From the NCBI GenBank assembly GCA_036510525.1, contig DATCDU010000034.1, positions 976-64,975 on the forward strand: 64,000 nt of DNA, written 5' to 3'. The notes below the pieces were generated by a model. The model saw nothing but the letters and a program-made list of their open reading frames with translations. It was not told the DNA's origin and searched no databases. Below are positions 10,000-16,752 of this stretch, one piece after another (position 1 is the first letter of the stretch; each line of letters starts with the position of its first letter). Source of the stretch: Minisyncoccota bacterium (lineage in GTDB: Bacteria; Patescibacteriota; Minisyncoccia; UBA6257; 2-01-FULL-56-20). Made by a program: the position numbers and the translations under genes.

Positions 10000-12900
10000 C
10001 TACTTACTAGTTTCCACCGCCGCTTCCTCCTCTTCGGCCACGTCCGACTCGTGGAGCATTTCGTCCGCAGGAAGATCGCGCTTTCCGGCAGGGATCAACC
10101 GGCCGATGATGACGTTCTCCTTGAGGCCGCGCAGCTTGTCGATCTTGCCCTCGATCGCGGCTTTGACGAGCACGCGGGAGGTATCCTGGAAGGACGCTGC
10201 GGAAAGGAATGATTCCGCCGAGAGCGCGATGCGGGTGATGCCGAGCAACACTTCCTCCGCCTTCGCCTGCTTCTTGCCGGCTTTCTTGAGATCTTTGTTC
10301 ACCTCCAAGAACTTGGACTTTTCAACGATCTCGCCCATTACGAAATCATCCGCATCGCCGCCGTCGGAGATCTTTACGCGCGAGAACATCTGCTTCACGA
10401 TCATTTCGATGTGCTTGTTGTTGATGGAAGCACCTTCCGAGAGATAGATCCTTTGCACTTCATTCACGATGTAGCGGCCAACGGCACCCATGCCCTTGTG
10501 TTCGAAAAGCTCGTGGATGTCGAGGTTTCCTTCGGAGAGCTGGTCGCCTTTCGTAACTTTATCCCCTGCCTTCGCAAAGAGGACGGTGCCACGCGAGACG
10601 CTGATCTCCTGCGCCTTTGCTTTCTTGTTCTCGGAGATGAAGCGCATCACTTTCAAAGTGCCGCGCTCTTCGATCTTGTCGATCGTCCCGTCGAACGGCG
10701 CGAGGATCGCGCGGCCCTTCGGCGCGCGGGTCTCGAAGATTTCCTCAACGCGCGGCAGACCGTGCGTGATGTCCGCGCCGGCGGCGCCTCCCTGGTGGAA
10801 GGTACGCATCGTCAGCTGTGTCCCCGGCTCGCCGATGGACTGGGCGGCGATGACGCCGACCGCGGTGCCGTACTTCACGAGTTCGTTGATGCTGAGGTCG
10901 TAGCCGTAGCACTTTGCGCAGATTCCATAGAAGGTCTTGCACGAGATCGGCGAGCGCACGATCACGGAGTCGAGCTTGGATGCCTCGATCTCATCGGCGG
11001 TGTCGCGATTGATCACCTCGTTCGCGTGGACGAGGATCTTGTTGCCCACCTTCACATCCACGAGCGCGGTGCGGGAGAACAACTTGGAAGCAAAGCTGTG
11101 ATTGAACTCCTTGCCATCGCTGCGCAGGATCTCCAATCCCTCTTTCGTGCGGCAATCCTCTTCGCGGATCGTGAGGTCCTGCGAAACGTCCACCAAGCGA
11201 CGGGTAAGGTAACCGGCCTGCGCGGTTTTCAAAGCCGTGTCGGTCGTTCCTTTGCGCGCGCCGTGGGTGGCGATGAAGTATTCCAACACCGAAAGTCCTT
11301 CTTTTAATGAAGATTTAATAGGAAGTTCGATGGTCTCTCCTTTCGGGTTCTGCACGAGTCCTTTCATACCCATCATCTGGATTGGCTGTGACCACGAACC
11401 GCGGGATTTGGAATCCACGATCTGGTAGATGGAATTGTCCTTCGGGAATATCCCAAGAATGATCTTCGCGAGCTCATCCTTTGATTTTTCCCACACACTG
11501 ATGACACGGCTGCGACGTTCCGGCGGCGTGAGCAAACCTTCCGCGAACTGGCCGTTGATGAGCGCCACTTCATCGTTCGCCCGCTGCATGATCTCCTTCT
11601 TCTGCGGCGGAATGATAAGGTCGGCCATCGCCCAGGTGATGCCGGACACCGTCGCCATCTCGAATCCGAGGAGCTTCATGCGATCGATCGTGTCGCGGGT
11701 GACGTCCATGCCGTGCTTCTCAAAGATCTTGGAGAGCAACTTGCTGATCTTCGGCTTCGTCATCATCTCGTTCACGTAATCCATCTTGCCGTCGAGCGTC
11801 TGGTTGAAGATCAAGCGGCCGACGGTCGTCTCCGTCATCGTCCCTCCGATGGCGATCTTGATCGGCGCATGGAAGGTGATGAAGTTGAACTGGTACGCGA
11901 GCATTGCCTCGTCGAAATTCGCAAAGTGGCGAAGCGGACCTTTTGCTTCCTCCATGCGGGTGATGTAGTACAAACCGAGCACTACATCGTTGATCGGGGC
12001 GGTGATGAGGTCGCCGGTGGCGGGCTTGAGCAGGTTGCGGCCTGCGGACATGATCTCGCGGGCTTCCTGCTGTGCGGCCTCGGAGAGCGGAAGATGGACG
12101 GCCATCTGGTCGCCGTCGAAATCGGCATTGAACGCCGGGCAGACGAGCGGGGGGAGCTTGAGGGCAAGGCCCTCAACCAATTGCGGACGGAACGCCTGCA
12201 CCGAAAGCCGGTGCAACGTCGGAGCGCGGTTCAAGAGCACATGCTTGTCTTTGATGATCTCTTCGAGAATGGCGAGCACTTCCGGCGTGTGCTCTTCAAT
12301 GAAGCGCGACGCGCTGCGGATGTTGTGCGCCAATCCTTGTTTGATGATCTCGCTGATCACGAACGGGCGGAAAAGCTCGAGCGCCATGCGTTTTGGAATG
12401 CCCATCTGGTCAAGCTTGAGCTTAGGACCGACGACGATCACGGAGCGGCCGGAATAATCCACGCGCTTTCCGAGAAGGTTCTGGCGGAAGCGGCCCTGCT
12501 TGCCTTTCAACATGTCGGCAAGGGAGCGAAGCGGGCGGCGCTGTGCGGAAAGTTGCTGAGTGCCGAAGCGCGCCGAGTTGTCGATCAACGCATCCACGGC
12601 TTCCTGGAGCATGCGCTTCTCGTTGCGGACGATGACGTCCGGCGCCTTGATCTCCAAAAGCTTCTTCAAGCGGTTGTTGCGGTTGATGACGCGACGATAG
12701 AGGTCGTTCAGATCGCTGGTCGCGTAGCGTCCGCCGTCGAGCGCCACCATCGGACGGAGGTCCGGAGGAAGCACCGGCAAAACGGTCGTGATCATCCATT
12801 CCGGACGGCCGCCGTTGCGGATCATCGCTTTGAACATCTTGAGGCGGCGAAGCAACTTGCTCTGCGCCATCGGATCCTTCGCGCCTTCGAGTTCTGCCTC

Positions 12901-15900: not shown

Positions 15901-16752
15901 GTTCGTCTTCTTCTTGCTGAGCTCGAGGCGCTGGTTCATCTTGTAGCGGCCCACCTCGGAGAGGTCGTAGCGGTCGGGGCGCTCGAACATTGCGGCAATA
16001 AGGTTCTTTGCGGTGTCGGCGGCGGCCGGGTCACCCGGGCGCTGGCGCTTATAGATCTCTATATATGACTCCGCGGCGTCCTTTGCTACATCCTTTTTTA
16101 ATGTGGCTTCGATAAACTTAACGAGGCCGGTATCATCCTTCTCGAAGGTCTTCTTGATGGTCTCCGTGTCCATGCCGAAGATGCGGAGCAACGCGCTCAC
16201 CGGCACCTTGCGGTGGCGGTCGATCTTGACACTGATCGTGCCGTCGATGTCCGTCTCGAACTCAAGCCATGCACCGCGGTTCGGGATGATCTTGGCGCCG
16301 AAGAGCTGACGGCCGCGGTACGGCACTGCGGTAAAGTAGACGCCCGCGGAGCGGACGAGCTGGGCGACGACGACGCGCTCGACGCCGTTCACGATGAACG
16401 TGCCGCGCGTGGTCATGATCGGGAAATCGCCAAAATACACCTCCTGCTTGTGCTCGTGGCCCGTGCGGTTGTTCACCAAACGCAGGGTGCAGCGAAGCGG
16501 CGCTTCGTAGGTCGCTTCTTTATAGCGCGCGGTCGTCTCGTCGTACTTCGGTTCGTCAAAACGATAGTTGGAAAAATAAAGTTCGAATTCCTTTCCGGTA
16601 TGATCGCGGATCGGAGAAATTTCCTCAAGCAGTTCGTTCAAACCTTTTTCGAGGAACCACTGGTACGACTTCAACTGCGCCTCGTTGAGGTTGTAGGGAG
16701 AGATGAGCGGTTTTGATTTTGAAAAGTTTTTAGTAGAGGTAAATTTTGCCAT
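10000..16752 (-). CDS. rpoBC: DNA-directed RNA polymerase beta-beta' fusion protein (rpoB fused in frame to rpoC)
   Basis: A single 2250-aa ORF. The N-terminal half is RpoB (…[24 protein letters not shown], which matches the RpoB C-terminus FNVLLKEIRSLGINIEL). After a ~10-aa linker comes the RpoC N-terminus ([35 protein letters not shown], zinc site [22 protein letters not shown]), which runs to the typical beta' C-terminus. Confidence 0.9.
   Translation of the reverse strand: [2250 protein letters not shown]

Follow-up and report, generated by a model that had tools for sequence, protein, structure and literature searches.

A Natural In-frame rpoB–rpoC Fusion, Probably Fixed in One Clade of Paceibacteria

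The Fused rpoBC Gene and Its Two Halves

The stretch of DNA analyzed here (the window) consists of 64,000 nucleotides (nt) from a Minisyncoccota bacterium (GenBank assembly GCA_036510525.1, contig DATCDU010000034.1, positions 976–64,975) and contains no N. At 10000–16752 on the minus strand lies rpoBC, in which the β (RpoB) and β′ (RpoC) subunits of RNA polymerase (RNAP) are encoded in succession by a single open reading frame (ORF). The ORF list, the translation, Pfam, and NCBIfam agree on its extent: it starts with ATG and runs for 2250 codons plus the stop, with zero internal stops. The predicted product of 2250 amino acids (aa) has a mass of 251.8 kDa and is identical to GenBank HEY5221301.1, which is named there just “subunit beta'”. 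The evidence described below indicates, with a probability of about 0.9, that this gene represents a genuine and evolutionarily fixed rpoB–rpoC fusion, joined end to end, in one clade of Paceibacteria within the Patescibacteria, or candidate phyla radiation (CPR).

The RpoB part is compact and occupies aa 1–1052 (13597–16752, minus strand), as delimited by Pfam, NCBIfam NF001616, and sequence motifs. The RpoC part occupies aa 1053–2250 (10003–13596, minus strand), as delimited by TIGR02386, motifs, and the N-termini of split RpoC proteins. The Pfam domains Rpb2_1, 2, 3, 45, 6, and 7, which are the full RpoB set, span aa 22–1046, and Rpb1_1 to 5, the full RpoC set, span aa 1056–2148. The protein belongs to the RpoB family by NF001616 (1520 bits; equivalog cutoff, 896) and to the RpoC family by TIGR02386 (1535 bits; curated cutoff, 963.5). 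The β motifs HGNKG and GEMEVWAL are intact in the RpoB part, and the RpoC part carries the β′ Zn ribbon at aa 1110 and the Mg-binding catalytic motif NADFDGD at aa 1542. A complete β followed by a complete β′ within one stop-free ORF is what characterizes a natural rpoBC fusion, and a 6.7-kb stop-free ORF in which both halves exceed curated thresholds cannot be a chance product. The initial annotation, made from the sequence alone, had described an in-frame fusion specifying a single 2250-aa polypeptide with no stop codon or frame change at the junction; the ORF, its translation, and the Pfam domains bear out the fusion, and the translation confirms the uninterrupted junction. Recoding or an alternative genetic code at the junction is ruled out, as the ORF has no stop codons of any kind.

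Structure of the Junction

The peptides that the initial annotation had quoted from the two sides of the junction lie where they were placed, from 13638 to 13551 of the window (EDILRW at 13551). In comparison with solved structures, β homology stops at about aa 1051 and β′ homology starts at about aa 1056, and the best 60 solved-structure matches include separate β and β′ chains only. Split relatives begin RpoC at the position equivalent to Arg1053, which by this alignment is the residue occupying the place of their initiator Met. Both comparisons put the added length near zero, so that the linker of about 10 residues proposed initially is an overestimate. As far as the alignments allow the ends to be placed, the join is end to end, with the β C-terminus (…YENEGD) leading straight into the β′ N-terminus (RKDAFSA…), essentially without an added linker.

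Column entropy and alignment to split RpoB C-termini delimit a variable stretch at aa 1048–1052 (E-N-E-G-D; 13597–13611, minus strand), in which the old RpoB C-terminal tail probably acts as the connector. In an alignment of 121 sequences, these residues, which align with the C-termini of split RpoB proteins, are the only variable positions of the junction (1.7–2.6 bits, compared with means of 0.22 bits over RpoB aa 950–1040 and 0.51 bits over RpoC aa 1057–1085). The length of the connector is kept in about 98% of the sequences, with insertions in 2–3 only, and Arg1053, Asp1055, and Phe1057 are 83–100% conserved. The distance from the FNVL anchor in β to the PETINYR anchor in β′ is 59–60 aa in nearly all of the best fused matches.

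Conservation of the Fusion Among Relatives

All of the 120 best full-length protein matches to the window protein are fused (69–94% identical). Their lengths are 2240–2322 aa in 114 cases, the other 6 being truncated at 1894–2038 aa, and the fused matches come from four independent collections (JGI, ENA, NCBI, and Logan assemblies). A common in-frame junction, nearly constant in length, recurs in no fewer than 137 distinct fused sequences that independent projects and assemblers produced. At the DNA level, an intact fused ORF is present in five relatives (loci L001, L081, L084, L085, and L086), and among the relatives checked in this way, all those at least 72% identical are fused.

Between the window and L084, the nonsynonymous (dN) and synonymous (dS) divergences are 0.066 and 1.46, respectively, over the whole gene, and 0.017 and 1.19 over aa 1030–1080. 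The dN/dS ratio across the junction is about 0.01–0.05, and the frame of the junction has thus been maintained while synonymous sites neared saturation. The protein matches, the junction length, dN/dS, and the five DNA loci all indicate that the fusion is common to the relatives and is kept by selection. The initial annotation had left a choice between a lineage marker and an artifact that removed the rpoB stop, and this choice is decided for the lineage marker. The alignment to related genomes that it had proposed as a check finds the fusion in close relatives, which disposes of the possibility that all relatives have separate genes. Fused close relatives together with split, more distant Patescibacteria make up the pattern expected of a clade-specific marker.

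Extent of the Fused Clade

Members of the fused set bear the names Candidatus Liptonbacteria, Candidatus Ryanbacteria, Minisyncoccia, and Patescibacteria group. Pairwise identity within the set goes down to 73% for the β half and 69% for the β′ half, and the closest non-members, which are split Patescibacteria, are 66% and 61% identical, respectively. Neighbor-joining distance trees were built from the C-terminal 600 aa of β, the N-terminal 600 aa of β′, and a denser sampling of the β′ N-terminus, and the fused clade nests among split Patescibacteria in all three. In both 600-aa trees, the 121 fused sequences group together in a clade that contains no others, and the successive sisters of this clade are split. 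The denser tree (298 sequences) contains 136 fused sequences in the clade, with a fused fragment, P0280, as the immediate sister and a group of 27 split sequences as the next one. Bootstrap support for a clade excluding all split sequences other than P0276 is moderate (80 of 100 replicates).

Several observations weigh against a fusion of this form and distribution. In the remaining 20 of the 100 bootstrap replicates of these simple distance trees, a split sequence other than P0276 entered the fused set, and two apparently split sequences, P0407 and P0276, sit inside the fused clade. In addition, an AlphaFold2 model of a 450-aa junction fragment, computed from a 43-sequence alignment, is too poor for conclusions about geometry (mean predicted local distance difference test score [pLDDT], 53.7; predicted template modeling score [pTM], 0.36). 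Of the two discordant sequences, P0407 is rejected as a split gene and is an annotation artifact, since its contig (L081) holds an intact 2272-aa fused ORF. Over about 250 residues, P0276 matches the fused P0085 with 100% identity, yet 9 of its first 20 residues differ; by this signature it looks like an assembly chimera.

Split Relatives and the Organization of Their rpoB and rpoC Genes

A peptide-pattern scan of GTDB (FGEMEVWA and similar patterns) listed 80 loci, 8 of which were from Patescibacteria; the scan distinguishes fused from split genes and does not measure their frequency. At L002–L008, which include a Zambryskiibacteriota genome, a stop, a few codons, and then an ATG lie between rpoB and rpoC. 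A search with the RpoC N-terminus, whose candidates were short or partial proteins, supplied 110 split RpoC N-termini from Colwell-, Wolfe-, Giovannoni-, Yanofsky-, and Staskawiczbacteria and other Parcubacteria lineages. Each of these has its own Met 21–58 (mostly 26–30) residues before PETINYR.

Five sister-group loci keep the gene order of the window (ftsW–mltG–rpoB–rpoC–rpsF–ssb) with rpoB and rpoC separate. In three of them the two genes are divided by spacers of 184, 90, and 83 nt, and in the other two they lie in different frames, with overlaps of 28 and 14 nt. At L088, the overlap reads …LIRDNGENYGKS followed by the stop, over MENLKAIKLKIASPED…, and the window is continuous at the equivalent place. 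The order ftsW/rodA–mltG–rpoB(C) upstream is found also at L081, L082, L083, and L084, and the synteny of rpsF, ssb, and rplK downstream is conserved in relatives; the locus differs from the classical rplKAJL–rpoBC operon. The five DNA-checked fused relatives carry the same flanking genes as the window.

The rpoC gene itself is broken in two of the sister-group metagenome-assembled genomes (MAGs), at L087 (4001–7608; 541 + 667 aa) and L088 (4001–7536; 427 + 741 aa). These frameshifts most likely stem from faulty assembly and not from a split of the cyanobacterial rpoC1/rpoC2 kind.

Comparison With Known Fusions

In the literature searched, the lineages listed with fused rpoBC are Helicobacteraceae and Wolbachia (PMC7483510). 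A preprint describes the two genes as “often overlapping, and occasionally fused,” and notes that a fusion made synthetically works (bioRxiv 10.1101/2021.11.05.467461). The statement in the initial annotation that fusions are known in only a few lineages (Helicobacter, Wolbachia) matches this literature; sequence databases, however, hold more fused lineages.

The fused rpoBC of Helicobacter and Wolinella (NF007172, PRK09603; about 2890 aa) resembles that of the window in being a single ORF of β then β′ that is fixed lineage-wide. To judge from the title of Zakharova et al. (1999), as cited in PMC7483510, lineages related to Helicobacter have overlapping rpoB and rpoC, a situation comparable to that in the sister group of the window, with its overlaps of 14 and 28 nt. 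The window protein is, however, about 640 aa shorter than the Helicobacter type, because its CPR subunits are without lineage insertions, and it scores only 2200 bits with the Helicobacter-type model NF007172 (cutoff, 5372). Helicobacter muridarum, which was recovered as fused, served as the positive control: its distance from GEMEVWAL to PETINYR is 119 residues, compared with 104 in the window, and the connecting sequences are unrelated. From the last conserved β block to the first conserved β′ block there are 24 residues in Helicobacter and 8 in the window. The Wolbachia gene (NF011417, PRK14844; about 2840 aa) has the same architecture and likewise belongs to a reduced-genome, host-dependent bacterium, but one of an unrelated phylum in which the fusion is of independent origin; the window protein scores 2097.6 bits with NF011417 (cutoff, 4632). 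An engineered rpoB–rpoC fusion in Escherichia coli, mentioned in the same preprint, reportedly shows that a covalent β–β′ chain can assemble into active RNAP. That fusion is artificial, whereas the one in the window is a product of evolution.

A junction-centered query of 1200 aa was compared with 1.84 billion cluster representatives, among which the whole fused clade of Paceibacteria collapses to one, P0003. Both halves also occur together in about two dozen other representatives of more than 2000 aa (within P0121–P0164). Among these are Mycoplasma wenyonii WP_014849752.1 (2648 aa), a MAG of Anaerolineaceae (2744 aa), and several unnamed clusters with 6–21 members (P0132, P0135, and P0139). 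None shares more than 57% identity with the window protein, and clustering at 50% identity keeps them separate. Most of these other fused clusters, which are known from protein records, have 1–2 members, so some may be errors, and none of the fused groups seen comes near the Paceibacteria clade in number of members. Judged from these records, rpoBC fusion has evidently happened repeatedly, and natural fusions are apparently more widespread than the searched literature states.

Alternatives to a Fixed and Independent Fusion

A join created by sequencing or assembly, through the loss of a base or a stop in a MAG, is one alternative, and MAGs do carry frameshift errors, as the breaks at different positions of rpoC in L087 and L088 illustrate. 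Such an error would not, however, recur as an in-frame junction of identical length in at least 137 sequences between which synonymous sites are near saturation, and the junction is without any vestige of a stop, a spacer, or a start codon. An artifact is extremely improbable and, on these comparisons, practically excluded. Inheritance or horizontal acquisition of the fusion from Helicobacteraceae or Wolbachia would account for the domain order and the position of the join, both of which are the same as in the known fusions. It is hardly credible, however, given that the protein passes the generic models for rpoB and rpoC but reaches less than half of the cutoff of either fused-family model, that the distance trees speak against it, that the nearest relatives of both halves (61–66% identical) are split Patescibacteria proteins, that the junction differs from that of Helicobacter in sequence and length, and that the local synteny is common to the window and the split sister lineages. 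The fusion in Paceibacteria is thus best described, as far as these sequence comparisons reach, as an independent origin of a known architecture.

A fused gene could also yield two proteins, by proteolytic cleavage at the junction or by translation of β′ from an internal start. An in-frame ATG is present at Met1060, the NCBI pipeline picked an internal GTG as the rpoC start in L081, and the conserved Arg1053-Lys1054-Asp1055 could in principle be a processing site. Residue 1060 is Leu in 95% of the clade, however, which leaves no conserved internal start, and no Shine–Dalgarno-like motif lies at a suitable distance from the internal start. The conserved R-K/R-D-x-F needs no special explanation, because split RpoC proteins of the sister lineages ordinarily begin in a similar way (e.g., MPRRTDF…). 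Two separate products are accordingly improbable, and Met1060 as an internal start is rejected because the position is not conserved.

Probable Origin and Predicted Consequences of the Fusion

The two sister-group genomes with overlapping genes suggest a route to the fixed fusion. In the ancestor, the last part of rpoB would have overlapped the beginning of rpoC in a different frame, an arrangement that these genomes still have, and a small frame-restoring indel would have joined the two genes, removing the rpoB stop and the need for a separate rpoC start. A one-base change of frame at such an overlap would suffice. An indel of this kind is the likely origin; the sequences have diverged too far for the event itself to be reconstructed. 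The broader proposal is that the fusion, a rare genomic change, is an undescribed synapomorphy of a large, family-to-order-deep clade of Paceibacteria, including Liptonbacteria and Ryanbacteria, that was born from overlapping rpoB and rpoC and gives a very compact, single-chain RNAP core (2250 aa). Its chances, taken as a whole, are put at slightly better than even.

In bacterial RNAP, the β C-terminus adjoins the β′ N-terminus, and functional β–β′ fusions, both engineered and natural, exist. Because the two termini are adjacent in RNAP, the fusion would be tolerated, with catalysis unchanged. β–β′ would be made as one chain of about 252 kDa, so that 1:1 synthesis would be obligatory and the β/β′ association step of core assembly would become intramolecular. 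That the product remains one uncleaved chain is inferred from the sequence, and the fusion may be of advantage in a reduced genome or merely neutral. The fusion is mechanistically unsurprising, and a change to the working of RNAP is unlikely.

Annotation and Significance

No paper describing fused rpoB and rpoC genes from the CPR, the Patescibacteria, the Parcubacteria, or the Liptonbacteria was found in the full-text literature, a body in which few subscription journals are covered. The fused proteins are public but are labeled plain β or β′, and a few JGI entries say “beta-beta'”. In GCA_016190325.1 (JACPQV010000034.1; L081, 1827–8645), GenBank calls the β′ half only, as a 1214-aa protein from an internal GTG, and gives no annotation for the β half. 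Pipelines for annotation and for marker genes thus treat the fused gene wrongly.

rpoB and rpoC are standard markers in phylogenomics, in estimates of completeness, and in coverage normalization, and rpoB counts have been used for normalization (PMC8672522). Because these genes are standard markers and pipelines mishandle the fused gene, the fusion can distort marker counts in CPR-rich samples. The fusion also marks a subclade of Paceibacteria by a simple, discrete character, in a group whose internal taxonomy rests almost wholly on concatenated-protein trees. To the few natural β–β′ fusions that have been published, it adds an independent case that is large and well populated. With the overlapping intermediate preserved in sister lineages, the route from separate to overlapping to fused genes is open to comparative study. 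If the fusion is indeed a synapomorphy giving a single-chain core, the 2250-aa protein would serve well as a minimal scaffold in structural and synthetic studies of transcription in the CPR.

Neighboring Genes and Other Features of the Window

The upstream neighbors of rpoBC, all on the minus strand and assigned by Pfam, are ftsW/rodA (18003–19049) and mltG (YceG; 17023–18006). The downstream neighbors, also on the minus strand, are rpsF (9485–9940), ssb (8547–9038), and rplK (8077–8502). Between mltG and rpoBC lies an AT-rich spacer of 270 nt (16753–17022, minus strand), presumed from its sequence to be a promoter or leader region. It contains a near-perfect palindrome at 16883–16946, with 30-nt arms (93% complementary) and a 4-nt loop, which occurs once in the window and is absent from the equivalent spacer of five relatives. 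A search of the surroundings of rpoBC with Rfam at a permissive threshold gave chance-level matches only, one of them placing a miRNA model at the palindrome and another being to a Thr leader.

The rpsF–ssb spacer (9039–9484) is 446 nt long, compared with about 100–200 nt in relatives. Within it, ARAGORN reports a “tRNA-???” with a 2-base anticodon at 9287–9361 (plus strand), which is not called by the Rfam tRNA model, and a strong σ70-like site (11 of 12 matches) lies at 9373–9400 on the opposite strand.

Elsewhere in the window, the 23S rRNA gene (22342–26125, minus strand) is 3784 nt long, compared with 2925 nt for the model, and thus carries about 860 nt of insertions. Among the insertions are a group I intron (RF00028, 66.6 bits) and, inside the rRNA span, a 183-aa ORF that is possibly a homing endonuclease; the intervals recorded with this gene are 23112–23340 and 23442–23993. 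A 5S rRNA gene is located at 20828–20939, and a 222-aa ORF (21579–22247) lies between 5S and 23S; no 16S rRNA gene was found within the window. Two ORFs are very large, one of 1017 aa at 60217–63270 (minus strand) and one of 1746 aa at 33630–38870 (minus strand), the latter in a stretch of lower GC content (about 48%, compared with about 55% elsewhere).

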